Source of the DNA: Yuukianura sp. NJ FZ-2021
Lineage: Eukaryota
Direction of reading: 5' to 3'
Assembly: GCA_046563655.1 (NCBI GenBank)
Contig: CM102287.1
Coordinates: 7,006,001-7,070,000, forward strand
Length of the DNA: 64,000 bases
In this document: in pieces, positions 2,940 to 62,574 of the stretch
How positions within the stretch are numbered: position 1 is the stretch's first letter
Layout: each line of letters opens with the position of its first letter
Notes under the pieces: model-generated
The model's database searches: none
The model's input: the letters and a program-made list of their open reading frames with translations, nothing else
What the model was told of the DNA's origin: nothing
Position numbers and translations under genes: made by a program

Positions 2940-2953
2940 GTTTCCATGGTTGT
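2940..2953 (+). promoter_or_regulatory. Candidate RFX X-box upstream of IFT57
   Basis: GTTTCCATGGTTGT lies ~185 bp before the IFT57 ATG. One half-site is good (GTTTCC-AT) and the other is degenerate. X-boxes are typical of ciliary genes. Confidence 0.4.
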
Positions 2954-37294: not shown

Positions 37295-38000
37295 GCTACC
37301 GATGCACTATGGGAAATGAGAAGAGAATGTGTTTCAACTTTTACGTGCAAAGTGAATGGAAAACCTGAAACACATTCCCTCTATATCTCCCACTGTGCGA
37401 TGCCTTGTATCGTATCTAAGTTCTCAGATTCGAGTATTGTAAACTGTAAATTTGACACTGAAATCTTGTTCCTTTGAGATTTCCGCTACCAATCTTCAGA
37501 CCCCAGAAAATGGAACTGGACATTCAATTCGTCTTGGCCGGAGCAGAAGAATCTGAAACAGTCAGAGTCAGAATTTATTAGGCAATAGGTCAGAGGTTCG
37601 GATATCAAGTAAGGCCAAGCTGAACACGATAATTTGTCATGTCTTGGTGTCAAATTTATCAAAGGACTCACTTCAGAGAGTGTACTGTTAAGTCGAAATG
37701 TCAACCGAAATTTTGCCAATGGTATGCTGCTTTATCAAATTTCAAAATTTTTGCGGTGTGTAGATTGGGTATGAATGTAGTATTTCGTTTTTTTCCCCGC
37801 TATTTTTAGAACAAATGAATGGAACTATACATAACTGTTTACTTCATACAAAAGTACTAATACTTGGACAACAATGGATGAGCATTGCTATACTGTCCAG
37901 AGGCAGGCCACCCCTTCCCCCCCCCCCCCCCTCGTCCCCCCTCCGAACTTTCTGGAAGGTTCGGCTATATCGAAAACCGATCATAGCCAGTAACAGTCTC

Positions 38001-41000
38001 TGTTTGTAGAATTGCCCTATTTTCAATTCTACTTTTTCGGAAAAACAGAAACTCCATCTTTAGTTTTAGAGTTAAAACTTTTCATTTAAATTTTAGTTTA
38101 AAAACCCCCCTCCTACTCACATACCAAAAACCCCCTAGGTTATATTTAAAATTACAACTACGCAGTTAGTTTTAGACTCTGTCTTTTTCCCTTTCTTCGA
38201 CTCTTAGTCGTCCTTAGAATTCAGAACAAGCAGGTCATGTCCCTTGTCTCTAAGTTTTCGACCTCCAATTAACTATCAATTGTTAATTGCACTTCATTAA
38301 TCGATTAATTAAATAACGGGTTAAAAGCCCTGATTTATATGGACTTCTGACTCTGGCTTGTCCATATTTATTCCTAAAAAAGTTCAGTACTTCACTGAAC
38401 ATAAATTTTCCATATAATCAAAAGTACATTCAGCCCTAACCTCCACGTGTTCAAGATGGCCGCCAACAGTGTTACACCACCAGCCTTACCTTACGCTTCT
38501 TCGGTTTTTGGACTCAAGCTGTTCAAGACCAGAGCTGGAAAGTTTCTGCACTCACTGGACCCTAGTTCTTGGCAAGTGTCATCAGTGGACGTTAGTGTTC
38601 AGGAGAACAATTTCTTCAAAATCCAGTCAGATCTCCATTACTGGAAGCAAAACCTCATCATCTCAAGTTCACTGGAGTCTGACAGTGAGAGTGCTTTCCA
38701 AGAACAGGAAGAACTCCTTGAACAGTGTGAAACGATTGTTTCAAAGTGTCATTCTGCTATTCTCATGGCCAAGGAATCAGTTTACAACGCCATGATCAAA
38801 AGGGAACAGGATTCCAACATCCAGGTCAAAGGTCAGTCAAACGATCATTTTGATTTTAAGCTTGAAAAAACCAAGCCGCCTACTTTCAATGGGGACTACA
38901 CTGCTTGGCAAGACTTTTCGGATTTATTCAAAGCAGCAGTCATCGATAACCCGAAAATTTCTGGCGCTCAAAAATTAGTCTATTTGAAAAATTCTTTGAT
39001 TGGAGACGCCGCTTCTATCGCCTCATCTTTTCCACTGAATAATCTCAGCTTCCAGGAAGCTTGGGATCTCGTTGAAAAACGATTCAACAAGAAACGGGAA
39101 ATCGTCTTTTCTCATCTTCAGAAGCTGTTTTCGCTCCAGTCAGTTCCAGATTCGTCAAAAGGAATTTTGAAGCTTGTCGACACTGTCAATCAGTGTCTCC
39201 GTTCCTTGCAGATCCTTGGAGTGGACGTTTCCCAATGGGATTTGTTCATCGTTTACTGGGCCCATAACAAACTTGACCCAGAAACGCGGAGACAGTGGCT
39301 TCTGACCACTGACGACAGCCTCCCAACACTTTCTCCGTTTTTGGAATTCTTGGAAAAACGAGCAGATGCCCTTACACCTACTTCGTCTTCCAAACCGAAA
39401 ACAACTGCTCCTACTTCAACTGCACATCATACAACTACAGAAGAAACGAAGACCAAACGTTCGTGTCCTTCGTGCGGAGACAAATCCCACAAGATCTTCA
39501 AATGCCCGGAATTTTTGAAACTGACTCCTCATGACAGATCGAAGATTTCTCGGGAAAAGAAGCTCTGCACCAATTGTTTGGCTTCAAGTCACCAAATCAA
39601 AGAGTGCAAAAGTGAAGGGGTATGTGCAAAATGCTCAAAGAGACACAACACCCTTCTACATTTTGACACTCCAGCACCACATCTCACTCCCAAATCATCA
39701 GGGTCAACTTCCGGGTCAAATCCAAGAAATGAACCAGCAGGAAGTTCAGCACCCTCAACTCCTCACTCAAGTTCATCTTCCGACGATCATGTCGAATCTC
39801 ACCACTCGTCAGCAACCAACACCACTAACAAAGTGGTTCTCATGGCTACTGTTGTTGCCAGGGTCATTGACTCAAATGGAGACCTTCAACAATGTCGAGT
39901 CTTCCTGGACCCTGGATCAGAGTCAAACTTCGTCTCCGAGTCTTTTGCTGAGCGCTTCAACCTTCGCCGTCAGAAATCCTGCGTCAACGTCACAGGAATT
40001 GGAGGTTCTACTGGAGGCTCAACTCGTGGATTGGTAACATTCAAGTTACATTCTAAATTTGACAACTTCATTTTTCCAGTTAAGGCTCTGGTACTCCCCC
40101 GTCTCACCGGCCTCTTACCACGAGCTAAGTGCCAAGGTACGTTCACGCACCTACTTGGACTGTCACTTGCAGACCCAGACTTCAACGTCCCATCACCAGT
40201 GGACATCCTACTGGGTGCTGAAGCCACGTCCCAAGTACTTCTCCCTGGCCTCAAATTTGGACCGTCTGGATCACCCACCGCTCAAGATTCTCGATTCGGG
40301 TGGTTTCTCACAGGAACGGCTCCATTAAGCCAGCCTCACACCTCTACGTTCACCGTCAGTTCCTGTCACGCTTCCTGTGACCCAAACGATCACTGTTTGG
40401 AGACAGCGATTCAACGCTTCTGGGACCTTGACGACCCCTCTCCATCTGCCTCAAACTTTTCTCCCGACGAACAGGAATGTGAAGATCATTTCCTTCGCAC
40501 TTTCACTCGAGATTCAACGGGAAGGTACGAGGTCAACTTACCATTTTCAAGTTCCGGGGTTCTGGGGGAATCTGAGAAAAAAGCCGTTTCCTGCTTTCTC
40601 TCCCTGGAAAAACAGCTCGAACGAGACCCCGTCCTCAAAACAGCGTATCACAGCCAGATTCAAGACTACTTGTCAAGAAACTGGATTGAACCTGTCCCTG
40701 CTGCTGAACTTTCATCCGACAAAAAAGTGAAAGTAATCACAGTCAACAATCAAGAAATTTTTCTGCGTCCCTTTTACCTCCCTCATCATGTGGTTGTAAA
40801 ATTGGACAACTCGACTACAAAATTCAGAATTGTGTTTAACGCCAGTTCAAAAACCAATTCTGGAAGTTCCCTCAATTCACTTCTTCATTCCGGTCCGAAA
40901 ATTCAAACCGACCTACACCCACTTCTAATGCGGTTCCGTACCCATCCCATTGCGTTGTGTGCGGACATCGTCAAATTCTACAATCAAGTGAAAGTTTTCC

Positions 41001-44000
41001 CGCCACACTGTGACTTTCAACGCTTCATCTGGAGGCAGCAGAAAGGTGACACTTTCACTCATTTTCGTTTTTTGAGAGTGACTTTTGGCGTAACTTCCGC
41101 TCCATATCTCGCGATCCGCGTTTTACGCCAACTGGGGGAAGACTTCAAGGTCAACTTTCCTCTCGCTCACTCTGCAATCAAAGATGACTTTCTCGTGGAC
41201 AATCTCCTGTCAGGTGAAAGTACCATTGAAAAAGTCATGGAACTCAAGTCTCAACTAGAAGAAGTCCTATCTCAAGGTCAATTCCCTCTACAAAAGTGGG
41301 CCTCAAACTGCCCTGAAGTCCTGCAATCACTTTCTCCAGAAGAGCGGGAAAGTTTGTCAATGGACATTCGACTTGACGAATCAGTCAAGACAATCGGTCT
41401 GTTTTGGCATCCAGCCTCAGACACTTTTGGAGTGAAGATTTCACCGCCACCAACTTTCGCTACGCCAACTACAAAAAGAGAAATTCTCTCCCATGTCGCT
41501 CGGGTCTTTGACCCACTTCAGTGGCTGTCACCAGTCACAATTTCTGCCAAAATCCTTCTTCAGTGCCTCTGGAAGGAAAAGATTGGCTGGGATGACCCCA
41601 TCCCTCAACACTACGTCAAAAAGTGGCTGAAATATTCATCAGAACTTGAGCTACTTCGAGACTTCCGTATCCCTCGGTGTGTAACTTTTACTTCAGTTCC
41701 AGACTCATTCACTACCGTTCATGACCTCATTGGTTTCTGCGACGCAAGTAACCAGGCTTATGCCGCTTGCGTGTATCTGAGGTCAAAGTGCGATGGTCAA
41801 GTTAAAGTTCTACTCATCGCCGCAAAATCAAAAGTTGCTCCAGTTGGAGGAGAAACGACACCTCGTCTCGAATTATGCAGTGCCGTCCTCCTTACTCAAC
41901 TTGTAAACATGGTCTACACTGCCCTCACTTCAACCAAGGTCAACATCTCAACTGTAATCTGCTTCACAGATTCGACGGGAGCGCTTGGTCAACTCTTCTC
42001 TGAAGAAAAACAAACCGTCTTCGTCGCAAATCGAGTACGGAAAATCAAGAAGAGTCCCATTCAAATTCATTGGTACCATGTACCAGGGGATGTAAATCCA
42101 GCAGACCCATGCTCCAGAGGAATCTCTGCTTCCGTCTTTCTCCAGCATCCGACATGGCTCCACGGACCAACATTTCTTCAGTCGGAGGATCTACCCCCTC
42201 AACCCTACACTCAACATGTCGTAACTTTTTCTGCCGAAGTTGACCCCGGGTCAACATTCTACTCAAATGGAATCATCCGCCTCATCAAGTCAAAATCCTC
42301 TTTTGTCAAGATGAAGCGACTCCTATCATACTGGATTCGGCTTCAAAACAGATTCAGAAAAGGAGCGATGCCGACATCTGGACCTCTCACAACAAAAGAA
42401 TTGGATCAGGCTCAACTTTCCCTTGTTAAAGTTGTCCAGCAAGCCTGTTTTCCGGAAGAGATTTCTTTCTGCTCAAAGAAAAAACCAGTCAAAGGCAACA
42501 TCCGGTTCCTTTCTCCGTTCTTAGACGAACATGGCATCCTTCGAGTCGGAGGAAGACTGCAGATGTCGGCACTGGAGTTCCGAACCCGTCATCCAATTCT
42601 TCTACCGAAGTGCCGTACCAAGCCGAAGTCGACCGAAGAGAAGATTTTCAGGCGATTCACTCTTTGTGTCGCTCGACATTTTCATCAAGCTAATTTACAT
42701 GCCGGTCCAAAACTACTCCTGTCACTCATCAGGTCCGAGTTTTGGATTCCCAGAGGAGCTGACTTGTGCAACCGCATCTTCAGGACATGCGTCATCTGCT
42801 ACAAACAGCGTCCTCAGCCAGCCACTCAAATCATGGCACCTCTCCCTGCGTCTCGAGTTACCCCAGACTTGCCATTTCTCAAAGTTGGACTGGACTACGC
42901 AGGCCCCCTCAAGATTGCGATGATTCCAGGAAGAAAGCCACGACTTCTCGACGCCTACGTCTGCGTGTTCGTTTGTATGACCACCAAGGCCATACACTTG
43001 GAGTATGTCGGAGGTCTCTCAACCCCTGATTTTATCGCTGCCCTTCAACGCTTCTGCTCAATCAGGAATACACCCTCTGACATCTTCTGCGATGGTGGAC
43101 GCAATTTCCTGGGAGCAAAGAACGAACTGGACGCTCTCCAAACCCTGCTCTCCTCTCCAGAACATCAGCAGAAAGTAGCCCTTTTCGCCACTGGAGAAAA
43201 AATCAACTTTCACTTCAGCCCCCCTTATGGACCACATCATGGAGGGATTTGGGAAGCTGCGGTCAAAAGTATGAAGCTTCATCTGGCTCGAATTGTTCAA
43301 GGTCATCACATCTCCATTGAGGAACTGATCACTTTACTTGCCAGAACTTCAGCAGCACTTAACTCCCGTCCTCTCTCACCAGTCTCAGATGACCCCAATG
43401 ACTTCGAGGCTCTTACGCCATTTCACTTCTTGTCGCTGCGTGCTCCCAAGTTCATCCCAGAAGAAGATGTCACCTCAATGAAGTCACACCGGACTCGATG
43501 GGAACACGTACAGCAAATGGCCCAGCACCTCTTCAAGCGTTGGAGCACAGACTTTCTCCAGTCACTCCAACAGAAACACAAATGGCTCCAAATCAAGCCC
43601 AACATTGCCAAAGGAATGATGGTTCTAGTCCAGGACATCGATTCTTCCTTCAAACATAAGCGCTGGACCCTTGGACGAGTGGAGGAGACATTCCCAGGAC
43701 CAGACGGAAACATCCGAACCTGTGATGTCCGAATTCCAGTTCATGACGCTGACATCAAGTCAAAACCAGCCACTAAAATCTTCAGACGTCCCATTACTCG
43801 CCTTTCTCCATTGCCATTGGACGATGACGTCACTTCCGCCTTCAGCAGCATCAACTAGTTTAAGTTTTCATTTTCAAGTCAAAGTAGAGCTTAGATTTTA
43901 AGTCAAATTTAGATTTACTTTAAAAATTTAAGTCTTTCACTTATTCTTAATTGTAAGTTTCATACTTCAATTGTACAAACATTCATTTTCATTTTTCAAT

Positions 44001-44460
44001 TTCTTAAAATCAATTTAGTTCAGACTTTGGTGGATTATTAATCCACCAAGGCCGCGGAATGTTTGTAGAATTGCCCTATTTTCAATTCTACTTTTTCGGA
44101 AAAACAGAAACTCCATCTTTAGTTTTAGATTTAAAACTTTTCATTTAAATTTTAGTTTAAAAACCCCCCTCCTCCTCACATACCAAAAACCCCCTAGGTT
44201 ATATTTAAAATTACAACTACGCAGTTAGTTTTAGACTCTGTCTTTTTCCCTTTCTTCGACTAGTAGTCGTCCTTAGATTTCAGAACAAGCAGGTCATGTC
44301 CCTTGTCTCTAAGTTTTCGACCTCCAATTAACTATCAATTGTTAATTGCACTTCATTAATCGATTAATTAAATAACGGGTTAAAAGCCCTGATTTATATG
44401 GACTTCTGACTCTGGCTTGTCCATATTTATTCCTAAAAAAGTTCAGTACTTCACTGAACA
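38001..44460 (+). mobile_element. Full-length BEL/Pao LTR retrotransposon, element 1
   Basis: 401-bp LTRs (38001-38401, 44060-44460; TGT..ACA; ~5 substitutions), 5-bp TSD GTCTC and a single intact ORF. Confidence 0.97.
38456..43858 (+). CDS. BEL/Pao Gag-Pol polyprotein
   Basis: DUF1759-type gag (PTFNGDYTAWQDF), three Zn knuckles, protease LDPGS, RT (YLPHH, RIVFNAS, LVDN), RNase H (GFCDAS, PRLEL, TDS, NPAD) and integrase (DYAGP, CDGGRNF, WEAAVK). Confidence 0.96.
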   Translation: MAANSVTPPALPYASSVFGLKLFKTRAGKFLHSLDPSSWQVSSVDVSVQENNFFKIQSDLHYWKQNLIISSSLESDSESAFQEQEELLEQCETIVSKCHSAILMAKESVYNAMIKREQDSNIQVKGQSNDHFDFKLEKTKPPTFNGDYTAWQDFSDLFKAAVIDNPKISGAQKLVYLKNSLIGDAASIASSFPLNNLSFQEAWDLVEKRFNKKREIVFSHLQKLFSLQSVPDSSKGILKLVDTVNQCLRSLQILGVDVSQWDLFIVYWAHNKLDPETRRQWLLTTDDSLPTLSPFLEFLEKRADALTPTSSSKPKTTAPTSTAHHTTTEETKTKRSCPSCGDKSHKIFKCPEFLKLTPHDRSKISREKKLCTNCLASSHQIKECKSEGVCAKCSKRHNTLLHFDTPAPHLTPKSSGSTSGSNPRNEPAGSSAPSTPHSSSSSDDHVESHHSSATNTTNKVVLMATVVARVIDSNGDLQQCRVFLDPGSESNFVSESFAERFNLRRQKSCVNVTGIGGSTGGSTRGLVTFKLHSKFDNFIFPVKALVLPRLTGLLPRAKCQGTFTHLLGLSLADPDFNVPSPVDILLGAEATSQVLLPGLKFGPSGSPTAQDSRFGWFLTGTAPLSQPHTSTFTVSSCHASCDPNDHCLETAIQRFWDLDDPSPSASNFSPDEQECEDHFLRTFTRDSTGRYEVNLPFSSSGVLGESEKKAVSCFLSLEKQLERDPVLKTAYHSQIQDYLSRNWIEPVPAAELSSDKKVKVITVNNQEIFLRPFYLPHHVVVKLDNSTTKFRIVFNASSKTNSGSSLNSLLHSGPKIQTDLHPLLMRFRTHPIALCADIVKFYNQVKVFPPHCDFQRFIWRQQKGDTFTHFRFLRVTFGVTSAPYLAIRVLRQLGEDFKVNFPLAHSAIKDDFLVDNLLSGESTIEKVMELKSQLEEVLSQGQFPLQKWASNCPEVLQSLSPEERESLSMDIRLDESVKTIGLFWHPASDTFGVKISPPPTFATPTTKREILSHVARVFDPLQWLSPVTISAKILLQCLWKEKIGWDDPIPQHYVKKWLKYSSELELLRDFRIPRCVTFTSVPDSFTTVHDLIGFCDASNQAYAACVYLRSKCDGQVKVLLIAAKSKVAPVGGETTPRLELCSAVLLTQLVNMVYTALTSTKVNISTVICFTDSTGALGQLFSEEKQTVFVANRVRKIKKSPIQIHWYHVPGDVNPADPCSRGISASVFLQHPTWLHGPTFLQSEDLPPQPYTQHVVTFSAEVDPGSTFYSNGIIRLIKSKSSFVKMKRLLSYWIRLQNRFRKGAMPTSGPLTTKELDQAQLSLVKVVQQACFPEEISFCSKKKPVKGNIRFLSPFLDEHGILRVGGRLQMSALEFRTRHPILLPKCRTKPKSTEEKIFRRFTLCVARHFHQANLHAGPKLLLSLIRSEFWIPRGADLCNRIFRTCVICYKQRPQPATQIMAPLPASRVTPDLPFLKVGLDYAGPLKIAMIPGRKPRLLDAYVCVFVCMTTKAIHLEYVGGLSTPDFIAALQRFCSIRNTPSDIFCDGGRNFLGAKNELDALQTLLSSPEHQQKVALFATGEKINFHFSPPYGPHHGGIWEAAVKSMKLHLARIVQGHHISIEELITLLARTSAALNSRPLSPVSDDPNDFEALTPFHFLSLRAPKFIPEEDVTSMKSHRTRWEHVQQMAQHLFKRWSTDFLQSLQQKHKWLQIKPNIAKGMMVLVQDIDSSFKHKRWTLGRVEETFPGPDGNIRTCDVRIPVHDADIKSKPATKIFRRPITRLSPLPLDDDVTSAFSSIN

Positions 44461-44711: not shown

Positions 44712-45380
44712 TCAATGGACAAGGACGACGGATGACATGGACATACTCACGGTGGACAAACTGTAAAGTTCAAGGGCCATCACTGTTACCTGGATATTTC
44801 CGAAGACTTCAAGACCCGACGTCGGTAAGTTGCCAATTTTTTTTTGTTTAGCTTATCCTTTTCTATCGTAATGGTTGACTTCAACTTTTGCGAAGTCAAT
44901 CTCTGCTTGACCAATCTTCAATGGACAAGGAAGGACGACCTGGGATGCCCTAACCGTAACAGTACTCACCGTGGACATACTACAGAGCTCAAGTGCCAGG
45001 ACTGGAATGTGGATATTTGCGAAAACCACCACACGGCGGCAAGTTTTTGGCAACTTCATTTCAGCTTCTCTTTTCCTATCACAATCGCAATGTTTGACTT
45101 CTTTTGCGAAGTCAATCTCTGCTTGACCAATCTTCAATGGACAAGGAAGGATGACCTAGGACACCCTAAGTACTACCTGTGGACAACCTACAGAGCTCAA
45201 GTGCCAGGACTGGAATGTGGATATTTGCGAAAACTATGAAAACCCACCAGACGTCGGCAAGTTTTTGGCAACTGTTGATGTCAGCTTCTCTTTTCCTATC
45301 GCAATCGCAATGTGTTTGCGTTCTTTTTGTGACGTCAATCTCTGCTTGACCAATCTGCAACGGACAAGGAAGGATGACCT
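44712..45380. repeat. Degenerate ~210-bp tandem repeat (about 3 copies)
   Basis: CAATGGACAAGGA-type anchor recurs at ~44713, 44919, 45135 and 45358. GTCAATCTCTGCTTGACCAATCT and TGGATATTT.CG also recur. Confidence 0.85.
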
Positions 45381-45381
45381 A

Positions 45382-46538: not shown

Positions 46539-49500
46539 TAGACTAATTCCGAATTTCGTTTTTCATAACTCGAATCTCAACTTAAAAAATTTACTTAACG
46601 TAGCCGAAATTTCTTAAAACGCAAAAAGTGAAAACAACTCTTTTCTAAATAATATTTCTAAATTTTTGACTAAACCTTCTCTGCACCATCACTTAGGAAC
46701 ACATACTAAATCCCACAACCGAAACCTACGGAATCACTTCTTGGCGAATGTGTCCATGCACAGATCGTTTCAAAGTCTCAATCCGCATTGGTTCGGGGAT
46801 GTGGTAAAAAAACTTAGTCCCTGCGTCTCTTGCTTGAATGCGCAGCAGAAGTGTTATTATTAGAGTTAACGAGACTTGACTTGACGTTTAACGTGACTTT
46901 CGGTTTTTTTCTATAAGCTAGAACATACGGCATTGTAGTAGATTGGGCGCGAGGACGGATCGAGGCTTGCAAGTAGCTGTTCAGGTGACACAGGGCAGGG
47001 AGGGGTGTGAATCTCTCTCGGTAAGTCCGGAGTGTGCCAGTTCGAGTGAACTGGGGCCGGAATCTCGAGCGTAGTCATTGACTAGTCCTCTGTCGTATGT
47101 ATCTTCGTGTAGACTAATTCCGAATTTCGTTTTTCACAACTCGAATCTCAACTTAAAATATTTACTTAACGTAGCCGAAATTTCTTAAAACGCAAAAAGT
47201 GAAAACAACTCTTTTCTAAATAATATTTCTAAATTTTTGACTAAACCTTCTCTGCACCATCACTTAGGAACACATACTAAATCCCACAACCGAAACCTAC
47301 GGAATCACTTCTTGGCGAATGTGTCCAGGCACAGATCGTTTCAAAGTCTCAATCCGCATTGGTTCGGGGATGTGGTAAAAAACTTAGTCCCTGTGTCTCT
47401 TGCTTGAATGCGCAGCAGAAGTGTTATTATTAGAGTTAACGAGACTTGACTTGACGTTTAACGTGACTTTCGGTTTTTTTCTATACGCTAGAACATACGG
47501 CATTGTAGTAGATTGGGCGCGAGGACGGATCGAGGCTTGCAAGTAGCTGTTCAGGTGACACAGGGCAGGGAGGGGTGTGAATCTCTCTCGGTAAGTCCGG
47601 AGTGTGCCAGTTCGAGTGAACTGGGGCCGGAATCTCGAGCGTAGTCATTGACTAGTCCTCTGTCGTATGTATCTTCGTGTAGACTAATTCCGAATTTCAT
47701 TTTTCACAACTCGAATCTCAACTTAAAAAATTTACTTAACGTAGCCGAAATTTCTTAAAACGCAAAAAGTGAAAACAACTCTTTTCTAAATAATATTTCT
47801 AAATTTTTGACTAAACCTTCTCTGCACCATCACTTAGGAACACATACTAAATCCCACAACCGAAACCTACGGAATCACTTCTTGGCGAATGTGTCCATGC
47901 ACAGATCGTTTCAAAGTCTCAATCCGCATTGGTTCGGGGATGTGGTAAAAAACTTAGTCCCTGTGTCTCTTGCTTGAATGCGCAGCAGAAGTGTTATTAT
48001 TAGAGTTAACGAGACTTGACTTGACGTTTAACGTGACTTTCGGTTTTTTTCTATACGCTAGAACATACGGCATTGTAGTAGATTGGGCGCGAGGACGGAT
48101 CGAGGCTTGCAAGTAGCTGTTCAGGTGACACAGGGCAGGGAGGGGTGTGAATCTCTCTCGGTAAGTCCGGAGTGTGCCAGTTCGAGTGAACTGGGGCCGG
48201 AATCTCGAGCGTAGTCATTGACTAGTCCTCTGTCGTATGTATCTTCGTGTAGACTAATTCCGAATTTCGTTTTTCACAACTCGAATCTCAACTTAAAAAA
48301 TTTACTTAACGTAGCCGAAATTTCTTAAAACGCAAAAAGTGAAAACAACTCTTTTCTAAATAATATTTCTAAATTTTTGACTAAACCTTCTCTGCACCAT
48401 CACTTAGGAACACATACTAAATCCCACAACCGAAACCTACGGAATCACTTCTTGGCGAATGTGTCCAGGCACAGATCGTTTCAAAGTCTCAATCCGCATT
48501 GGTTCGGGGATGTGGTAAAAAACTTAGTCCCTGTGTCTCTTGCTTGAATGCGCAGCAGAAGTGTTATTATTAGAGTTAACGAGACTTGACTTGACGTTTA
48601 ACGTGACTTTCGGTTTTTTTCTATACGCTAGAACATACGGCATTGTAGTAGATTGGGCGCGAGGACGGATCGAGGCTTGCAAGTAGCTGTTCAGGTGACA
48701 CAGGGCAGGGAGGGGTGTGAATCTCTCTCGGTAAGTCCGGAGTGTGCCAGTTCGAGTGAACTGGGGCCGGAATCTCGAGCGTAGTCATTGACTAGTCCTC
48801 TGTCGTATGTATCTTCGTGTAGACTAATTCCGAATTTCGTTTTTCACAACTCGAATCTCAACTTAAAAAATTTACTTAACGTAGCCGAAATTTCTTAAAA
48901 CGCAAAAAGTGAAAACAACTCTTTTCTAAATAATATTTCTAAATTTTTGACTAAACCTTCTCTGCACCATCACTTAGGAACACATACTAAATCCCACAAC
49001 CGAAACCTACGGAATCACTTCTTGGCGAATGTGTCCATGCACAGATCGTTTCAAAGTCTCAATCCGCATTGGTTCGGGGATGTGGTAAAAAACTTAGTCC
49101 CTGTGTCTCTTGCTTGAATGCGCAGCAGAAGTGTTATTATTAGAGTTAACGAGACTTGACTTGACGTTTAACGTGACTTTCGGTTTTTTTCTATACGCTA
49201 GAACATACGGCATTGTAGTAGATTGGGCGCGAGGACGGATCGAGGCTTGCAAGTAGCTGTTCAGGTGACACAGGGCAGGGAGGGGTGTGAATCTCTCTCG
49301 GTAAGTCCGGAGTGTGCCAGTTCGAGTGAACTGGGGCCGGAATCTCGAGCGTAGTCATTGACTAGTCCTCTGTCGTATGTATCTTCGTGTAGACTAATTC
49401 CGAATTTCGTTTTTCACAACTCGAATCTCAACTTAAAAAATTTACTTAACGTAGCCGAAATTTCTTAAAACGCAAAAAGTGAAAACAACTCTTTTCTAAA

Positions 49501-52500
49501 TAATATTTCTAAATTTTTGACTAAACCTTCTCTGCACCATCACTTAGGAACACATACTAAATCCCACAACCGAAACCTACGGAATCACTTCTTGGCGAAT
49601 GTGTCCAGGCACAGATCGTTTCAAAGTCTCAATCCGCATTGGTTCGGGGATGTGGTAAAAAACTTAGTCCCTGTGTCTCTTGCTTGAATGCGCAGCAGAA
49701 GTGTTATTATTAGAGTTAACGAGACTTGACTTGACGTTTAACGTGACTTTCGGTTTTTTTCTATACGCTAGAACATACGGCATTGTAGTAGATTGGGCGC
49801 GAGGACGGATCGAGGCTTGCAAGTAGCTGTTCAGGTGACACAGGGCAGGGAGGGGTGTGAATCTCTCTCGGTAAGTCCGGAGTGTGCCAGTTCGAGTGAA
49901 CTGGGGCCGGAATCTCGAGCGTAGTCATTGACTAGTCCTCTGTCGTATGTATCTTCGTGTAGACTAATTCCGAATTTCGTTTTTCACAACTCGAATCTCA
50001 ACTTAAAAAATTTACTTAACGTAGCCGAAATTTCTTAAAACGCAAAAAGTGAAAACAACTCTTTTCTAAATAATATTTCTAAATTTTTGACTAAACCTTC
50101 TCTGCACCATCACTTAGGAACACATACTAAATCCCACAACCGAAACCTACGGAATCACTTCTTGGCGAATGTGTCCATGCACAGATCGTTTCAAAGTCTC
50201 AATCCGCATTGGTTCGGGGATGTGGTAAAAAACTTAGTCCCTGTGTCTCTTGCTTGAATGCGCAGCAGAAGTGTTATTATTAGAGTTAACGAGACTTGAC
50301 TTGACGTTTAACGTGACTTTCGGTTTTTTTCTATACGCTAGAACATACGGCATTGTAGTAGATTGGGCGCGAGGACGGATCGAGGCTTGCAAGTAGCTGT
50401 TCAGGTGACACAGGGCAGGGAGGGGTGTGAATCTCTCTCGGTAAGTCCGGAGTGTGCCAGTTCGAGTGAACTGGGGCCGGAATCTCGAGCGTAGTCATTG
50501 ACTAGTCCTCTGTCGTATGTATCTTCGTGTAGACTAATTCCGAATTTCGTTTTTCACAACTCGAATCTCAACTTAAAAAATTTACTTAACGTAGCCGAAA
50601 TTTCTTAAAACGCAAAAAGTGAAAACAACTCTTTTCTAAATAATATTTCTAAATTTTTGACTAAACCTTCTCTGCACCATCACTTAGGAACACATACTAA
50701 ATCCCACAACCGAAACCTACGGAATCACTTCTTGGCGAATGTGTCCATGCACAGATCGTTTCAAAGTCTCAATCCGCATTGGTTCGGGGATGTGGTAAAA
50801 AAACTTAGTCCCTGTGTCTCTTGCTTGAATGCGCAGCAGAAGTGTTATTATTAGAGTTAACGAGACTTGACTTGACGTTTAACGTGACTTTCGGTTTTTT
50901 TCTATACGCTAGAACATACGGCATTGTAGTAGATTGGGCGCGAGGACGGATCGAGGCTTGCAAGTAGCTGTTCAGGTGACACAGGGCAGGGAGGGGTGTG
51001 AATCTCTCTCGGTAAGTCCGGAGTGTGCCAGTTCGAGTGAACTGGGGCCGGAATCTCGAGCGTAGTCATTGACTAGTCCTCTGTCGTATGTATCTTCGTG
51101 TAGACTAATTCCGAATTTCGTTTTTCACAACTCGAATCTCAACTTAAAAAATTTACTTAACGTAGCCGAAATTTCTTAAAACGCAAAAAGTGAAAACAAC
51201 TCTTTTCTAAATAATATTTCTAAATTTTTGACTAAACCTTCTCTGCACCATCACTTAGGAACACATACTAAATCCCACAACCGAAACCTACGGAATCACT
51301 TCTTGGCGAATGTGTCCATGCACAGATCGTTTCAAAGTCTCAATCCGCATTGGTTCGGGGATGTGGTAAAAAACTTAGTCCCTGTGTCTCTTGCTTGAAT
51401 GCGCAGCAGAAGTGTTATTATTAGAGTTAACGAGACTTGACTTGACGTTTAACGTGACTTTCGGTTTTTTTCTATACGCTAGAACATACGGCATTGTAGT
51501 AGATTGGGCGCGAGGACGGATCGAGGCTTGCAAGTAGCTGTTCAGGTGACACAGGGCAGGGAGGGGTGTGAATCTCTCTCGGTAAGTCCGGAGTGTGCCA
51601 GTTCGAGTGAACTGGGGCCGGAATCTCGAGCGTAGTCATTGACTAGTCCTCTGTCGTATGTATCTTCGTGTAGACTAATTCCGAATTTCGTTTTTCACAA
51701 CTCGAATCTCAACTTAAAAAATTTACTTAACGTAGCCGAAATTTCTTAAAACGCAAAAAGTGAAAACAACTCTTTTCTAAATAATATTTCTAAATTTTTG
51801 ACTAAACCTTCTCTGCACCATCACTTAGGAACACATACTAAATCCCACAACCGAAACCTACGGAATCACTTCTTGGCGAATGTGTCCAGGCACAGATCGT
51901 TTCAAAGTCTCAATCCGCATTGGTTCGGGGATGTGGTAAAAAACTTAGTCCCTGTGTCTCTTGCTTGAATGCGCAGCAGAAGTGTTATTATTAGAGTTAA
52001 CGAGACTTGACTTGACGTTTAACGTGACTTTCGGTTTTTTTCTATACGCTAGAACATACGGCATTGTAGTAGATTGGGCGCGAGGACGGATCGAGGCTTG
52101 CAAGTAGCTGTTCAGGTGACACAGGGCAGGGAGGGGTGTGAATCTCTCTCGGTAAGTCCGGAGTGTGCCAGTTCGAGTGAACTGGGGCCGGAATCTCGAG
52201 CGTAGTCATTGACTAGTCCTCTGTCGTATGTATCTTCGTGTAGACTAATTCCGAATTTCGTTTTTCACAACTCGAATCTCAACTTAAAAAATTTACTTAA
52301 CGTAGCCGAAATTTCTTAAAACGCAAAAAGTGAAAACAACTCTTTTCTAAATAATATTTCTAAATTTTTGACTAAACCTTCTCTGCACCATCACTTAGGA
52401 ACACATACTAAATCCCACAACCGAAACCTACGGAATCACTTCTTGGCGAATGTGTCCATGCACAGATCGTTTCAAAGTCTCAATCCGCATTGGTTCGGGG

Positions 52501-55437: not shown

Positions 55438-55948
55438 ATTAGAAAAAAGTAGAAAAAAGGTAGAAAAAATTGCTTGGGGCGAGATTTTTTTGAAAACAGG
55501 ACTTACTGCCAAACCTCTTAAAGGAAAAGTATTTCGTTGCTATGGCAACTTTGATTTAACGGGACTTTCAGTTTTTTCTTATACGCGAGAACATACGGCA
55601 TTGCAGTAGATTGGGCGCGAAGACGGATCGAGGCTTGCAAGTAGCTGTTCAGGTGACACAGGGCAGGGAGGGATGTGAATCCCTCTCGGTGAGTCCGGAG
55701 TGTGCCAGTTCGAGTGAACCGGGGCCGGAATCTCGAGCGTAGTCATTGACTAATCCTCTGTCGTATGGATCTTCGTGTATATTTAACGTGACTTTCGGTT
55801 TTTTTCTTTCATTAACTTATCGTTTGTTGTATTTTTAACGGGACTTTCGGTTTTTTTCTTCCATTGACTTATCTTATATAGGTTTCCCTTTTGAGCAGTA
55901 ACTCCAGTTCCAGCGGAGCGGGGACCTTACCCCGGAAACAAAGGGGCC

Positions 55949-56190: not shown

Positions 56191-59100
56191 TGTTCAGGAA
56201 CTTTCAACCTGAACTTTTACTGAATTGAAATAAACAAAAGGGATCTGACCAAATCTGAGAAGTTCAGATCAATCAGGGCTTTTAACCCTTGGTTTAATGA
56301 ATGAAAGTTAATTAGAACAATTAATTGTTAAAGAGAGGTGAGAGCGAGTACTTAGACCTGTACTTGAAGTGACAACGTGCTAAGATCGACTTAGAGCTAA
56401 CAGAGCAAAAGAGAACAAAAGAACAAATCTAACTGCGTAGATGAGGGAGGGGCTAAGATGCCTGAAAATGAGGGAATTTTGAACCTAAATTTAAGCGGTA
56501 ATTTTAAACTAGAAAACCGAGTGGAAGCGGCTTGGGCAATTCCACAAACATTCCCCGGCGTTGGTGGATTTAGGAAATCCACCAAGGAAAACTGGAAATT
56601 AAAGCGGAAACGAAAACGGGGTTGCTTGTGAAACCGCGCACAAGCGCAAGAAACTTAAATTTTAGAAGGAGAGATAGGCTTAAATTTAAGTTAAATCTAA
56701 ATTTTAAAGAAAATCTAAATTTAAAACTTAACTCTAAACTCTACTCGAAATTGAAAAGAAAAGAGCTACATCTAGTTGATGCTGGAGAATGCTGCGGTGA
56801 CGTCATCATCGATTGGCAGAGGAGCAAGTCGAGTGATGGGGCGTCTGTAGACTTTCGTGTTGGGTCCCTTCTTGTCGGAGTTGTCGACTGGAATCCGAAC
56901 GTCGCAGGTTCTGACTCGTCCGTCGGGCCCAGGGAAGGTGGCTTCGATACGTCCAAGAGTCCAGCGCTTGTGCTTGAACGAGGAGTCGACATCTTGGACG
57001 AGGACCATCATTCCAGTGGCGAGATTAGGCTGGACTTGGAGCCACTTGTGTTTCTGCTGGAGAGATTGAAGGAAGTCGGAGCTCCAGCTTTTGAAGAAAT
57101 GCTGAGACATCTGTTGGATCAGTTCCCAGCGGCTGCGGTGTGACTTCATTGAAGTCAAATCCTCTTCCGGAATGTACTTAGGAGCACGGAGAGACAGGAA
57201 GTGGAATGGAGTGAGTGCCTGGAAATCATCGGGGTGATTTGAGACAGGCGTCAGAGGTCTGGAATTCAATGCAGCTGAAGTGCGAGCGAGGAGAGTCACA
57301 AATTCTTCCAGTGAAATATGGTGACCTTGAACAATTCTGGAGAGGTGGAGCTTCATGCTCTTGACGGCCGCTTCCCAGAGTCCACCATGATGGGGTCCAT
57401 AAGGGGGGCTGAAGTAGAAGTTAATTTTCTCCCCAGTTGCAAACAGCGTTACTTTGTGCTGATGTTGAGGAGAAGACAACAGCGTTTGAAGGGCTTCCAT
57501 CTCGTTCTTAGCGCCAAGGAAGTTCCGTCCTCCGTCGCAGTAGATTTCTGCTGGAGTGTTGCGGATGGCGCAGAAGCGTTGGAGAGCCGCGATGAAGTCT
57601 GGAGTGGAGAGTCCTCCGACGTACTCCAGATGAATGGCCTTGGTAGCCATGCAGATGAACACGCAAACGTAGGCGTCGATTAGGCGTGGATTCCGTCCTG
57701 GAATGAGGGCAATTTTGAGTGGACCTGCGTAGTCCACGCCAACTTTCAGGAACGGGAGATCCGGAGTCACACGAGCGGTGGGCAGAGGTGCCATAATTTG
57801 AGTGGTATGGTGAGGTCGTTGTTTGAAGCAGATCACGCAGGATTTGAAGATCCGAGTGCAGAGGTCTGCTCCTCTTGGAATCCAGAATTCCGAGCGGATG
57901 AGTGAGAGTAGGAGTTTCGGTCCAGCGTGGAGGTTTGCTTCATGGAAGTGACGAGCCACAGCAAGGACAAAGTGACTGAAGATTCGGTCTTCAGTTGAAG
58001 TAGGCTTGGAATGGCACTTTGGTAGAAGGACTGGATGACGGCTGGAGAATTCGAGTGCCGACATCTGGAGTCTGCCTCCTACGCGAAGGATGCCATTGTG
58101 GTCCAAGAAGGGAGAAAGGAACTTGATGTTGCCTTTGATTTGCTTCTTCTTGGCGCAGAAGTCGAGTTCTTCGGGAAAACAGGCCTTCTGGACTTCCTTG
58201 ATGAGGGCAAGTTGAGCCTGTTCCAGTTCGACTGAAGTGAGCGGTCCAGAGGTCGGCATCGCTCCTGTTCGGTGGTTGTTCTGGAGTCTGATCCAGTAGG
58301 CGAGAAGCCGTTTCATTTTGGAGAATGATGGAGTTGACTCGATGAGACGCAGAATTCCACATGAGGCGAATGTTGCACCAGCTCCGAGCGAGGCTATAAA
58401 AGTTGCAACATTTTCAGCGTAAGGTTGAGGGGGGAGATCTTCTGCCTTGAGGAAATCTGGTCCGTGGAGCCAGAGTGGATGAATGAGGAAGTTGGAAGGC
58501 GAGATTCCCCTTGAGCAGCAGTCAGCAGGGTTCAGCTCTCCCGGTACGTGGTACCAACGGGTAGTGACTGGACTATTCTTGATTTTTCGGACGCGATTGG
58601 CCACGAAGACTGTCTGCTTCTCAGTAGAAAAGAGTTGTCCGAGTGCTCCAGTGGAATCTGTGAAGCACAGAACAGAAGAAATTTTAATTTTTGTAGAATT
58701 TAAGGCTGTGTAGACGCTGTTCACAAGTTGTGACAGAAGTACGGCGCTGCACAGTTCTAATCTTGGAGTTGTTTCTCCACCGACGGGAGCAACCTTGGTT
58801 TTGGCTGCGATGAGCAGGATTTTGACCTCGTCCTCGCACTTTGACCGCAGGTAGACGCAGGCGCCGTACGCGAGATTTGACGCGTCGCAGAAGCCTATGA
58901 GGTCGTGGGTCACAGTAGAGGCGGGTACTGAAGTAGCGAAAGTCAGACATCGAGGGATGCGGAAATCGCGAAGAAGTTCAAGTTCAGAGGAGTACTTGAG
59001 CCATTTCTTGACGTAGTGATGAGGAATGGGATCGTCCCATCCTATTTTCTCTTTCCAGAGGGACTGGAGTAGAATTTTGGCGGAAATGGTGACTGGACTG

Positions 59101-62100
59101 AGCCATTGAAGAGGGTCAAAGACCCGAGCAACATGTGAAAGGATTTCACGTTTGGTGAATGTTGAGAGAGATGGTGGTGGAGAGATTTTCACGCCAAAAG
59201 AATCTGAGGCTGGATGCCAGAAGAGCCCAATGGTCTTGACAGATTCGTCAACTTGAATGTCCATGGAGTAGTTTTCCCGCTCTTCTGGTGAAAGTGACTC
59301 GAGTACTTCCGGGCAGTTAGAAGCCCATTTTTGAAGAGGGAACTTGCCCATGGTGAGAACAGATTCAAGTTGAGACTTGAGTTGGATGACTTCTTCCGTT
59401 GTGTTTCCGCCTGAGAGTAGGTTGTCCACAAGGAAGTCGTTTTGAATTGAAGCGTAGGCGAGAGGGAAGTCTTCTTTGCATTCTTCCCCCAGTTGGCGTA
59501 GAACGCGAATGGCCAGAAATGGAGCAGTGGTTACGCCAAAAGTCAAACGAAGAAAACGAAGATGAGTGAATGGTTCACCCCGGTCTGGTCTCCACAGAAA
59601 ACGTTGAAAGTTGCAGTGTGATGGAGAGACCTTGATCTGATTGTAAAATTTTACAATGTCAGCACAGAGTGTGATGGGGTGAGTGCGGAAGCGCATGAGC
59701 AGTGGATGAAGATCCGTCTGGATTTTTGGACCAGAGTGGAGAATGGAGTTGAGAGAGTGTCCGGAACTGGTTTTTGACGAAGCGTTGAAAACGATCCGGA
59801 ACTTTGTGGTTGTATTCTCCGGCTTTACAACCACATGATGAGGTAGGTAGAACGGAGAAAGAGAGAGTTGAGTTCCATTAGCTGATGTGACCTTGACCTT
59901 CAGATTCGGAGAAAGTTCAGCGTCAGGAATCTTCTCGACCCAGTTTCTGGCAATGTAGTCCTGGATCTGAGTGTGATAGGCAGATTTGAGGGTAGGGTCC
60001 TTGTCGAGCTGACGTTCCAGTGAGAGGAAGCAGGAAGTTGCTTTCTTCATGGATTCCCCCAGATCCCCAGAATCTTTAAATGGTAAGCTGACTTCATACC
60101 GTCCAGTTGAGTCGCGGGAGACGGTACTCTGGAAGTGACTTTCAGCTTCCTGATCATCAGCCGTAAGTTGAGGTGATGGAGGAGATGGATCCTCAAATTC
60201 CCAAAATCGCTCAAGTGATGCTTCCAAACACTGATCGTTTGGATCACAAGAAGCGTGGCATGAAGTGACGCAAAAAGTTGAGGTGTGACCCGGGCTTAAC
60301 GGGGCTGTGCCCGTAAGAAACCAGCCAAAACGAGAGTCTTGTGCTGTAGGAGTTCCAGAAGGTCCAATTTTGAGTCCGGGCAGGAGCACTTGAGCGGTGG
60401 CTTCTGCGCCGAGTAAGATGTCAATTGATGACGGAATGTTGAATGTAGGATCGGCCAGAGACAGGCCAGTCAAGTGCGGAAATGACCCCTCGCAGTTGGA
60501 GCGTGGAAGTAGTCCAGTCAGACGAGGCAGAATGAGAGCCTTAACAGGAAAAACAAAGTTATCAAAACGTGAGTGTAAATCGAATTTTACCACTCCCTTT
60601 GTAGAACCTCCAGATGAACCACCAATTCCAGTCACGCTGACGCATGACTTCTGTCGCTTCAAGTTGAAACGATCAGCGAAGGCTTCAGAGACGAAGTTTG
60701 ATTCGGAACCGGGGTCCAGAAAGACACGGCAGAGTTGACGATCCCCATTCCGGTCAATGACTCTTGCGACGACAGTCGCCATCAGAACCACTTTGGTAGT
60801 GGTGGTCGTAGAGGACGAGTGATGGGATTCGACGTGAACGTCAGAAGATGTGGTTGAGCCGGATGCTGAGGGTGTTGTTCTTGCCGGTGAAGAATTTTTA
60901 GAAGATGAGCCAGGAGTTGACCCGTTTGGTTTAGGATGAAGAGGTGGGACGTGAGTTTCAAAGTGTAGAAGAGTGTGATGCTTTTTTGAACATTTAGCAC
61001 ACACCCCTTCACTTTTACACTCACGAGTCTGATGACTTGAAGATAAACAATTAAGACAAAGTTTCTTCTCACGGGCGGCAGCTGATCGGTCGTGAGGAAG
61101 TAACTTCATGAAATCCGGACATTTGTAGATCCGGTGATTCTTGTCGTTACACTGAGGACAGGCGAATTTGGATTTGGTTTGCGCTGTAGTAGTGTGATGG
61201 ACAGTGGGAGAAGAAGTGGTTGATTTTCCCTTTGATGACGATGATGATGTTGGAGTGAGGGCGTTGGCTCTTTTCTCCAGAAACTCCATGAACGGAGGAA
61301 GAGTAGGAAGTTCATCGTCGGTGGTCAATAACCACTGTCTTCTGGTCTCCTGATCGAGTTTCAAGTGGGCCCAGAAGACGATGAAAATATCCCAATGGGT
61401 GACATCCACGTTCAAAATCTTCAAGGAGCGAAGGCATTGGTTGATGGTGTCCACCAGTTTCAGAATTCCTTTGGAAGTATCTGGAACTGACTGAAGAGAA
61501 AAAAGTTTGGTTAGATGGGAAAACACAATTTCTCGTTTTTTATTAAAACGTTTTTCGACCAGTTCCCATGCTTCAGCGAAGCTGAGATTGTTGAGAGGAA
61601 ACGACGAAGCGATTGAAGCTGCTTCCCCAGTGAGAGAGTTCTTGAGGTAGACGAGTTTTTGAGCACCGGAAATTCTGGGATTCTGGATGACGGCAGCCTG
61701 GAATAGATCCGAGAAGTTCTGCCAATCGGTGTAATCGCCATTGAAAGTCGGTGGTTTAGTCTTTTCGAGCTTAAACTCAGATTCAATGTTCAGCGTTTCA
61801 ACATTTCTGGTAACTTGAGTATGGGTTTTAGGAGTAATTGACTCACGAGTTGAAAGAAGGATGAGATGGATGGTCTCGAACAGATCATCGCAGTCCTCAA
61901 GTATGGATTCGACATCCTTCCAAGAATCGTCGTCTGATGAGCTGAACACTTTGTCGATGTTTTGTTTTATGAAGTTCAGTTCGTTTTTAAGTTCAGTGAA
62001 CTTTCCTTCCTTCACTGAAACTTCACATGATGTAGTAGGGATCCAAACACTGGGAACAAGAGTTGTTTGGAAACGAATTACACTTTTGTGTAATCGTTTG

Positions 62101-62574
62101 AGGCTGAAGATGGTTGTAGCACTGGTTACCATGGAATCACTGGTAGAGGCCATGATTCACTGATAGAGTCACTGATAACTTGAAAAGGTTAATTTTAGAT
62201 GATCTGAAAAACAATGTTCAGGAACTTTCAACCTGAACTTTTACTGAATTGAAATAAACAAAAGGGATCTGACCAAATCTGAGAAGTTCAGATCAATCAG
62301 GGCTTTTAACCCTTGGTTTAATGAATGAAAGTTAATTAGAACAATTAATTGTTAAAGAGAGGTGAGAGCGAGTACTTAGACCTGTACTTGAAGTGACAAC
62401 GTGCTAAGATCGACTTAGAGCTAACAGAGCAAAAGAGAACAAAAGAACAAATCTAACTGCGTAGATGAGGGAGGGGCTAAGATGCCTGAAAATGAGGGAA
62501 TTTTGAACCTAAATTTAAGCGGTAATTTTAAACTAGAAAACCGAGTGGAAGCGGCTTGGGCAATTCCACAAACA
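56191..62574 (-). mobile_element. Full-length BEL/Pao LTR retrotransposon, element 2
   Basis: 360-bp LTRs (56191-56550, 62215-62574) look identical by eye. 5-bp TSD CCCTC and an intact ORF. Confidence 0.97.
56772..62153 (-). CDS. BEL/Pao Gag-Pol polyprotein (1793 aa)
   Basis: Same domain order and motifs as element 1. Both proteins end DDDVT(S/A)AFSSIN. Confidence 0.96.
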   Translation of the reverse strand: MASTSDSMVTSATTIFSLKRLHKSVIRFQTTLVPSVWIPTTSCEVSVKEGKFTELKNELNFIKQNIDKVFSSSDDDSWKDVESILEDCDDLFETIHLILLSTRESITPKTHTQVTRNVETLNIESEFKLEKTKPPTFNGDYTDWQNFSDLFQAAVIQNPRISGAQKLVYLKNSLTGEAASIASSFPLNNLSFAEAWELVEKRFNKKREIVFSHLTKLFSLQSVPDTSKGILKLVDTINQCLRSLKILNVDVTHWDIFIVFWAHLKLDQETRRQWLLTTDDELPTLPPFMEFLEKRANALTPTSSSSSKGKSTTSSPTVHHTTTAQTKSKFACPQCNDKNHRIYKCPDFMKLLPHDRSAAAREKKLCLNCLSSSHQTRECKSEGVCAKCSKKHHTLLHFETHVPPLHPKPNGSTPGSSSKNSSPARTTPSASGSTTSSDVHVESHHSSSTTTTTKVVLMATVVARVIDRNGDRQLCRVFLDPGSESNFVSEAFADRFNLKRQKSCVSVTGIGGSSGGSTKGVVKFDLHSRFDNFVFPVKALILPRLTGLLPRSNCEGSFPHLTGLSLADPTFNIPSSIDILLGAEATAQVLLPGLKIGPSGTPTAQDSRFGWFLTGTAPLSPGHTSTFCVTSCHASCDPNDQCLEASLERFWEFEDPSPPSPQLTADDQEAESHFQSTVSRDSTGRYEVSLPFKDSGDLGESMKKATSCFLSLERQLDKDPTLKSAYHTQIQDYIARNWVEKIPDAELSPNLKVKVTSANGTQLSLSPFYLPHHVVVKPENTTTKFRIVFNASSKTSSGHSLNSILHSGPKIQTDLHPLLMRFRTHPITLCADIVKFYNQIKVSPSHCNFQRFLWRPDRGEPFTHLRFLRLTFGVTTAPFLAIRVLRQLGEECKEDFPLAYASIQNDFLVDNLLSGGNTTEEVIQLKSQLESVLTMGKFPLQKWASNCPEVLESLSPEERENYSMDIQVDESVKTIGLFWHPASDSFGVKISPPPSLSTFTKREILSHVARVFDPLQWLSPVTISAKILLQSLWKEKIGWDDPIPHHYVKKWLKYSSELELLRDFRIPRCLTFATSVPASTVTHDLIGFCDASNLAYGACVYLRSKCEDEVKILLIAAKTKVAPVGGETTPRLELCSAVLLSQLVNSVYTALNSTKIKISSVLCFTDSTGALGQLFSTEKQTVFVANRVRKIKNSPVTTRWYHVPGELNPADCCSRGISPSNFLIHPLWLHGPDFLKAEDLPPQPYAENVATFIASLGAGATFASCGILRLIESTPSFSKMKRLLAYWIRLQNNHRTGAMPTSGPLTSVELEQAQLALIKEVQKACFPEELDFCAKKKQIKGNIKFLSPFLDHNGILRVGGRLQMSALEFSSRHPVLLPKCHSKPTSTEDRIFSHFVLAVARHFHEANLHAGPKLLLSLIRSEFWIPRGADLCTRIFKSCVICFKQRPHHTTQIMAPLPTARVTPDLPFLKVGVDYAGPLKIALIPGRNPRLIDAYVCVFICMATKAIHLEYVGGLSTPDFIAALQRFCAIRNTPAEIYCDGGRNFLGAKNEMEALQTLLSSPQHQHKVTLFATGEKINFYFSPPYGPHHGGLWEAAVKSMKLHLSRIVQGHHISLEEFVTLLARTSAALNSRPLTPVSNHPDDFQALTPFHFLSLRAPKYIPEEDLTSMKSHRSRWELIQQMSQHFFKSWSSDFLQSLQQKHKWLQVQPNLATGMMVLVQDVDSSFKHKRWTLGRIEATFPGPDGRVRTCDVRIPVDNSDKKGPNTKVYRRPITRLAPLPIDDDVTAAFSSIN

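Follow-up and report, generated by a model that had tools for sequence, protein, structure and literature searches.

How does a long terminal repeat (LTR) retrotransposon begin reverse transcription when the place where a host tRNA is expected to anneal offers no site for one? The question is raised by a 64,000-nucleotide stretch of DNA from Yuukianura sp. NJ FZ-2021 (GenBank assembly GCA_046563655.1, contig CM102287.1, positions 7,006,001 to 7,070,000 of the forward strand), hereafter called the window and numbered from its first letter. The window contains two full-length LTR retrotransposons in inverted orientation, E1 (38001-44460, + strand) and E2 (56191-62574, - strand). A first-pass annotation, made from the letters of the DNA, had described both as BEL/Pao elements whose leaders pair with their own LTRs instead of carrying a tRNA primer-binding site, and had proposed tRNA-independent priming or an RNA switch as the explanation. 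Its sequences and coordinates were all correct on re-reading, and its interpretation is partly supported by the present analysis. The pairing is real and was maintained by compensated changes. It suggests, but does not prove, that E1 and E2 prime their own reverse transcription. The parts of the two elements are the following:

38001..38401, + strand: 5' LTR of E1, 401 nt, with TG..CA ends, delimited by offset comparison with 44060-44460
44060..44460, + strand: 3' LTR of E1, 401 nt
38456..43858, + strand: gag-pol open reading frame (ORF) of E1, single and intact, 1800 aa
62215..62574, - strand: 5' LTR of E2, 360 nt, with TG..CA ends
56191..56550, - strand: 3' LTR of E2, 360 nt
56772..62153, - strand: gag-pol ORF of E2, single and intact, 1793 aa

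Past the LTR-terminal CA, the leader of E1 reads TAAATTTTCCATATAATCA and that of E2 TTGTTTTTCAGATCATCT. Both were scanned over their whole length, and neither contains a TGG between the end of the 5' LTR and the ATG. Thus, no primer ending in CCA can anneal, and a tRNA 3'-CCA primer site is impossible in E1 and in E2, which agrees with the earlier description of both leaders as lacking a TGG-initiated site. The window contains no tRNA genes. Searches of the two LTR-leader regions against Rfam returned sub-threshold noise only (Intron_gpI with 17 bits at a cut-off of 50, and DdR1 with 24.7 bits at a cut-off of 70). Two other candidate primer sites, namely the TGG at the start codon and the stretch TGGTCTAC.. 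located 40 nt into the leader of a relative introduced below (L001), were dismissed on account of their great distance from the LTR and because other elements do not share them.

The missing site does not affect the classification of the elements. Because of the Pfam matches of their ORFs, E1 and E2 are assigned to BEL/Pao (Belpaoviridae), as the annotation had it. Both ORFs contain Peptidase_A17 (Pao; E-values 2.5e-49 and 1.7e-48), DUF1759 (Gag; 1e-29 and 6.5e-29) and, after the integrase, DUF5641 (8.8e-23 and 2.8e-23); both also match Integrase_H2C2, and a Protein Atlas search agrees. The two proteins are 74% identical. As is typical of BEL/Pao, the LTRs begin with TG and end with CA, and the target site duplications, GTCTC for E1 and CCCTC for E2, are 5 bp long and thus within the range of 4-6 bp. 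The 18-nt site complementary to the 3' end of a host tRNA, a feature given by the ICTV, the international committee for virus taxonomy, is absent from both. This site is descriptive of BEL/Pao membership rather than defining, and the protein evidence decides. Both elements are young and intact. The LTRs of E1 differ at 5 positions (98.8% identity) and those of E2 are identical (100%), and for this reason the leaders are taken to be the functional versions. The 64-kb window holds no further copies or solo LTRs of either element.

In place of a tRNA site, each leader contains a segment complementary to the LTR of the same element. In the following list, A denotes the LTR segment and A'' its partner in the leader:

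38318..38330, + strand: conserved block GGGTTAAAAGCCC, with four exact copies in the window, one per LTR
62300-62312, - strand: copy of the block GGGTTAAAAGCCC in E2, directly followed by segment A of E2
38331..38343, + strand: TGATTTATATGGA, segment A of E1, which may be the self-primer or form the 5' side of a long helix
62287..62299, - strand: segment A of E2, TGATTGATCTGAA, directly 3' of the block
38402..38408, + strand: spacer TAAATTT between the LTR end of E1 and the paired leader segment, 7 nt
38409..38420, + strand: TCCATATAATCA, segment A'' of E1, the part of the leader that pairs with A, located where a primer-binding site is expected
62198..62208, - strand: segment A'' of E2, TTCAGATCATC, beginning 6 nt past the LTR end

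The LTR families of E1 and E2 have only one stretch in common, which is 45 nt long (38304-38348 in E1, 84% identity) and holds the block GGGTTAAAAGCCC; in predicted folds, the block can form a small hairpin, GGGTT/AGCCC. Segment A can pair with the leader at the primer-site position, A'', and the final 58-72 nt of the LTR are thereby enclosed by a stem. In E1, positions 38331-38343 pair with 38409-38420 through 12 bp with one bulged T and a longest uninterrupted run of 7 bp; in E2, 62287-62298 pair with 62198-62208 (+ strand coordinates) through 11 bp, again with one bulged T, and the longest run is 8 bp. The spacer of E2 is TTGTTT (6 nt), and TTT immediately precedes the paired leader segment in E1, E2 and L001. 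Segment A lies 71-85 nt from the LTR end in E1, E2 and the more distant relative L004. When the A segments of E1 and E2 are set in one register, three paired positions distinguish them, and at each of these both partners have changed in such a way that the pair is kept (T-A to G-C, A-T to C-G, and G-C to A-T); one terminal A:A'' pair is lost in E2. These pairs were tabulated by script, because MAFFT places the leader arm of E2 one column out of register. Outside this segment the two leaders do not align. Hence, the claims that each leader pairs, with one bulge, with the LTR segment behind the shared block, and that the sequence changed while the pairing was kept, have both held, and so has the caveat of a gap of 6-7 nt to the LTR end.

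Inside the LTR, segment A has an alternative partner, and the two pairings exclude each other; this, too, had been noticed earlier and is confirmed here. This partner, A', and a hairpin at the 3' end of the LTR are located as follows:

38360..38367, + strand: segment A' of E1, GTCCATAT, alternative partner of A within the LTR, 8 bp with a 15-nt loop
62266..62272, - strand: segment A' of E2, TCAGATC, alternative partner of A within the LTR
38382..38400, + strand: 3'-end hairpin of the E1 LTR, GTTCAGT/ACTGAAC, 7 bp, at the position of a U5-IR stem-loop, in both the minimum free energy and the centroid fold
62216..62238, - strand: 3'-end hairpin of the E2 LTR, GTTCAGG/CCTGAAC, in the predicted fold

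A' sits 16-17 nt downstream of A, and two of the three variable positions of A co-vary in A' as well. For the region from A to just past A'', the minimum free energy and centroid folds predict the same architecture in both elements, with A:A'' as the closing helix and a 7-bp hairpin that includes the LTR-terminal C. The z-scores of these folds are -3.4 for E1 and -1.35 for E2. The terminal hairpin also occurs in a contig of a third subfamily, where GTTCAGT..ACTGAAC stands in an E2-like context and thus represents a compensated change from G-C to T-A.

Could the complementarity have arisen by chance? When the whole LTR was compared with the leader by RNAduplex, segment A was the best partner in both elements. 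With the 16 nt after the block held fixed against the first 30 nt of shuffled leader, the observed energy was reached in 4/2000 shuffles for E1 and 6/2000 for E2. With the whole LTR free, the counts were 26/500 and 1/500, respectively. When the last 130 nt of the LTR were tested against the complete leader, the result was not significant (92/500 for E1, 34/500 for E2). The leader shuffles of the fixed-segment and last-130-nt tests were mononucleotide shuffles. Moreover, the choice of segment in E1 and E2 followed the observation of the pairing, and the two elements share ancestry; the independent weight therefore rests on the three compensated changes and on the relatives. Fortuitous matches between an LTR and a leader that are both AT-rich and of low complexity, or a functionless relic of a partial duplication of the LTR end, could account for the weak outcome of the tests with a free segment (92/500 and 34/500, and 26/500 for E1), for the post hoc choice of the segment in two related elements, and for the fact that A' and A'' are direct repeats. 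It does not account for three out of three differences being compensated in leaders that otherwise fail to align, nor for the co-variation of two of these positions in A', and it sits poorly with leaders that belong to young, intact elements and are functional on that ground. We regard this explanation as improbable, also in view of the relatives.

Relatives were sought by a protein scan of public metagenomes, which yielded seven loci. L005 and L006 are without a 5' region, and L002 is without a second LTR, so that its LTR end is not placeable. L001 (55% amino acid identity) is contained in a contig with the last ~180 nt of the 5' LTR and the leader. Its block corresponding to GGGTTAAAAGCCC is GGGTGCAAAACCC, and 13 nt that cover the end of this block and the sequence behind it, CGGAAAACTTCGA, are unrelated in sequence to segment A of E1 and E2. 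Nevertheless, the best downstream partner of CGGAAAACTTCGA is TCGAAGTTTCCG, which forms 12 bp with one bulge and a longest uninterrupted run of 6 bp; shuffles reached this pairing in 0/2000 cases. The 3' LTR of L001 is cut off at the contig end, and its LTR end is therefore not fixed. If the LTR ends at ..CCCAACA, as MAFFT prefers, the partner begins 4 nt past it, in the manner of E1 and E2. The gag-pol frame of L001 is interrupted once (ORFs 223-4095 and 4131-5549), so this copy is slightly damaged or the contig contains an error.

L004 and L003 represent a second and more distant BEL/Pao family from metagenomes (35% amino acid identity), of which L007 is a relative with 77% LTR identity. The relevant stretches are 1672-1980 in L004, 48-518 in L003 and 3072-3369 in L007. 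The LTR end, ..CCTATTCA, is supported by three copies including L007, and the leader begins with TGGTTTTATTCG. In our judgement, what follows the TGG in this leader does not resemble a sequence complementary to the 3' end of a standard tRNA. In L004, a segment of the LTR that begins 85 nt before the LTR end, GAATAAAAC, is perfectly complementary to the 9 leader nt from +3 onwards, that is 2 nt past the LTR. A match of this length was reached in 16/5000 shuffles. GAATAAAAC lies within a block of 26 nt that is identical in L007, and it overlaps an AATAAA. The first-pass annotation had named pairing in further family members as a check, and L001 and L004/L003 add support in this respect. Their matches are independent of those in E1 and E2 and speak against mere chance; that segment A of L001 finds three partners in total is what chance pairing could produce.

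Comparison of the leaders also bears on the idea that the paired segment serves to bind some other host RNA than the 3' end of a tRNA, such as an internal tRNA fragment or another small RNA, which A would merely resemble. Priming by half-tRNAs is known from Ty1/copia lineages (PMC6317226; PMC3592414). However, E1, E2 and L001 each have a different segment, which would call for three host RNAs and for an LTR match to every one of them at the same position; the co-variation of A and A' would be left without an explanation. A host RNA of this kind is the least probable of the explanations considered.

The E1/E2 family is multi-copy in the DNA contigs of four runs (X1, X2, X4 and X5). In these contigs, the 44 nt from 38305 to 38348, which comprise a hexamer described below, the block, segment A and ACTTCT, are common to several otherwise different LTR subfamilies and are joined to at least four different upstream sequences. 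Contig depth peaks in the bin 38308-38358, and loose ends occur at 38304/5, 38318 and 38348. Among the contig rows listed, no variants fall inside 38331-38343 or 38409-38420, and a covariation test was not obtained from them. Two protein scans and one DNA pattern scan of a viral contig collection found no relatives, and neither did a protein scan of a genome contig collection. In the genome contigs, an 18-nt pattern had 23 matches, which were taken as chance because none of the 23 is LTR-like beyond the pattern itself.

What, then, might the pairing do? The best reading is self-priming of reverse transcription as in Tf1, which we favour tentatively and credit with a little less than an even chance of being correct. 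Segment A would form, or lie close to, the 5' end of the genomic RNA, from where it would fold back onto A''. The RNase H of the element would then cut at the 3' end of the duplex, between ..GGA or ..GAA and the conserved CTTC, and the freed 3'-OH would prime minus-strand DNA, as it does in Tf1 of fission yeast. The A:A' hairpin might conceal the primer in any RNA or context where reverse transcription is not to take place, for example in the 3' copy or in RNA under translation. Self-priming is the simplest mechanism that uses both the conserved pairing and the absence of a tRNA 3'-end site. The fuller proposal of a BEL/Pao lineage that replicates without host tRNA, with a 5' RNA fragment ending in A as the primer and with the bulged duplex and the A:A' hairpin as a switch, is somewhat less likely than not.

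The position of the transcript ends is critical for this reading. The following hexamer and its counterparts are relevant here:

38308..38313, + strand: ATTAAA hexamer just upstream of the block, which may be a poly(A) signal or belong to a TATA-like, AT-rich region
62317-62322, - strand: ATTAAA, the matching hexamer of E2; L001 has AATAAA at the corresponding place

If the AT-rich run upstream of the block is TATA-like, transcription would start at or near the start of A; L001 fits best, with TATTTAT ~30 nt upstream. The promoter motifs would also permit a start upstream of A. Several observations weigh against self-priming. The conserved block contains TTAAAAG, and if this is the TATA box, the start would be ~19 nt downstream of the start of A, which would therefore lie in U3 and be absent from the RNA 5' end. 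E1, E2 and L001 all carry ATTAAA or AATAAA at a distance of 17-18 nt on the upstream side of A. Should this hexamer be the poly(A) signal, the end of R would fall close to A, and little or no R would thus remain downstream of the primer for strand transfer. The duplexes of E1, E2 and L001 share a 1-nt bulge, which is always an extra homopolymer base in A (TTT/TT, TT/T and AAAA/AAA); a primer site that is recopied from the primer in each cycle should lose such a bulge unless it is selected. In E1 and E2, the paired leader segment begins 6-7 nt past the LTR. To these points must be added the non-significant test with the last 130 nt of the LTR and a likewise non-significant energy-based test of L004 with a free LTR segment (189/500). 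In L001, segment A has two further, weaker partners, and the LTR end most like that of E1 and E2, ..CCGAACA, would place the main partner inside the LTR. The sample comprises four elements in three lineages.

Some of these observations would be explained if the A:A'' helix were real and selected but not a primer, the A:A' hairpin were a switch, and the true primer were another molecule. In one form of this explanation, a stem between U5/R and the leader shapes the initiation region. In the other, with A in U3, the leader pairs with the 3' LTR copy of A, and this cyclisation of the 5' and 3' ends brings the 3' R beside the strong-stop site. The compensated changes and the shuffles demonstrate pairing rather than priming, structural helices usually have conserved bulges of this kind, and the co-variation of A, A' and A'' fits two exclusive folds. 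A TATA-like TTAAAAG would set A between the TATA box and the start site, hence in U3. Furthermore, Ty1 requires a long-range pairing of the region adjacent to its primer site with the RNA 3' end (PMC3592414). However, a purely structural helix leaves the elements without any primer site, as the spacer of 6-7 nt is too short for one and the leader lacks a TGG. In L004/L003, the complement begins 2 nt past the LTR, which is exactly the primer-site position. In addition, the block of L001, GGGTGCAAAACCC, is not TATA-like, and an AT-rich, TATA-like run is found ~30 nt upstream of the start of its segment A. A structural role without priming is the chief rival to self-priming; it is rather unlikely in our view, and self-priming is the reading carried forward here.

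Apart from the 5' regions, a hairpin was observed directly upstream of a short purine tract and the 3' LTR in E1, E2 and L001:

44029-44059, + strand: hairpin of E1, GGTGGATT..AATCCACC
56551-56583, - strand: hairpin of E2, GGTGGATTT..AAATCCACC
5802-5840 of L001: hairpin GGCAGAT..ATCTGCC

In all three elements, the hairpin is followed by AAGGCCG.GGA. and then by the LTR start, TGTTTG; in L001, the stem differs in sequence and the pairing is kept. Other repeats are found elsewhere in the window. Between the inverted E1 and E2, a tandem array (46807-55774) consists of 16 copies of a 570-bp unit that are 99-100% identical, with a last copy of 75%. A little past the 3' LTR of E1, at 44885-45381, a repeat of 216 bp is present in 2.3 copies, and a C-rich tract with runs of up to 15 C (37913-37945) lies ~60 nt upstream of the E1 insertion site. 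Further away, at 11237-11553, an inverted repeat of 145 nt with 98% complementary arms 27 nt apart is possibly a foldback element or one that resembles a miniature inverted-repeat transposable element (MITE).

If E1 and E2 indeed prime themselves, this would be the first case of self-priming in a third superfamily of LTR retrotransposons, and the mechanism would then occur in all three. It would contradict the ICTV profile of the Belpaoviridae, in which replication is tRNA-primed and the primer site, for tRNA-Arg or tRNA-Gly, is 18 nt long (PMC8742986). It would also favour an ancient origin or a ready re-evolution of self-priming among LTR retroelements, and it bears on whether the ancestor of these elements was self-primed, an idea raised previously (PMC3601003). 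A practical consequence is that pipelines which require a tRNA site, or a perfect self-complement of at least 10 bp no more than 5 nt from the LTR, would overlook or misinterpret such young, intact, multi-copy elements as E1 and E2. In the literature passages searched, no report of self-priming in BEL/Pao was found; the proposals there are limited to Ty3/gypsy and Ty1/copia lineages, and the main survey of BEL/Pao does not mention primer sites.

E1 and E2 resemble ordinary BEL/Pao elements in their single gag-pol ORF with Peptidase_A17, DUF1759 and DUF5641, their TG..CA LTRs and their 5-bp target site duplications. They differ in the primer site: Achilles has an 18-nt site for tRNA-Tyr right after the LTR (PMC4580426), and a site for tRNA-Asn is predicted in a Pao-Bel element of Anopheles, whereas E1 and E2 have no site for a tRNA 3' end. 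Pairing between U5 and the leader is also found in retroviruses (mentioned in PMC5445492). In Rous sarcoma virus, such stems and the adjacent U5 hairpin present the tRNA-bound primer site; E1 and E2 share the U5-leader pairing and the U5 hairpin but not the tRNA site. In Ty1, the CYC5/CYC3 interaction, which is required for reverse transcription, likewise joins a segment adjacent to the primer site to one near the RNA 3' end (PMC3592414). Unlike E1 and E2, Ty1 has a primer site for tRNA-iMet, and the LTR arm of E1 and E2 may be present at the RNA 5' end as well.

The closest parallels are the self-priming elements. Self-priming is established for Tf1, Tf2 and Tj1 (PMC4600332; PMC5341516) and predicted in the plant lineages Tcn1 (gypsy) and TAR (copia) (PMC6317226), and has thus arisen or persisted in more than one superfamily. 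For Tcn1 and TAR, as for E1 and E2, it was deduced from sequence, namely from LTR complementarity just past the 5' LTR. The criterion of that survey was a perfect match of at least 10 bp, 0-5 nt past the LTR (PMC6317226). E1, E2 and L001 fall outside it because their duplexes are interrupted and separated from the LTR by 4-7 nt, and L004, with 9 bp at +2, is 1 bp short. Tf1 is said to need perfect complementarity of ~11 nt (PMC5445492), longer than the longest runs of E1 (7 bp), E2 (8 bp), L001 (6 bp) and L004 (9 bp).

With Tf1, Tf2 and Tj1, E1 and E2 share the lack of a tRNA primer site, in their case of the CCA type, and an LTR stretch whose complement lies just past the 5' LTR. Tf1 reportedly also requires a stem-loop similar to U5-IR. 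A stem-loop at the end of U5, between arms 78-91 nt apart, is a likeness to Tf1 that in E1 and E2 is known from predicted folds. The differences are the conserved 1-nt bulge, the start of the pairing 6-7 rather than 0-5 nt past the LTR, and the affiliation with BEL/Pao. The Tf1/sushi clade has a Pol of the Ty3/gypsy type, often with a chromodomain, and by their Pfam matches E1 and E2 are not members of it. Since their Pol is that of BEL/Pao, any mechanism shared with Tf1 would be convergent or ancestral; if E1 and E2 prime themselves, they have the mechanism in common with Tf1/sushi, and not the lineage.

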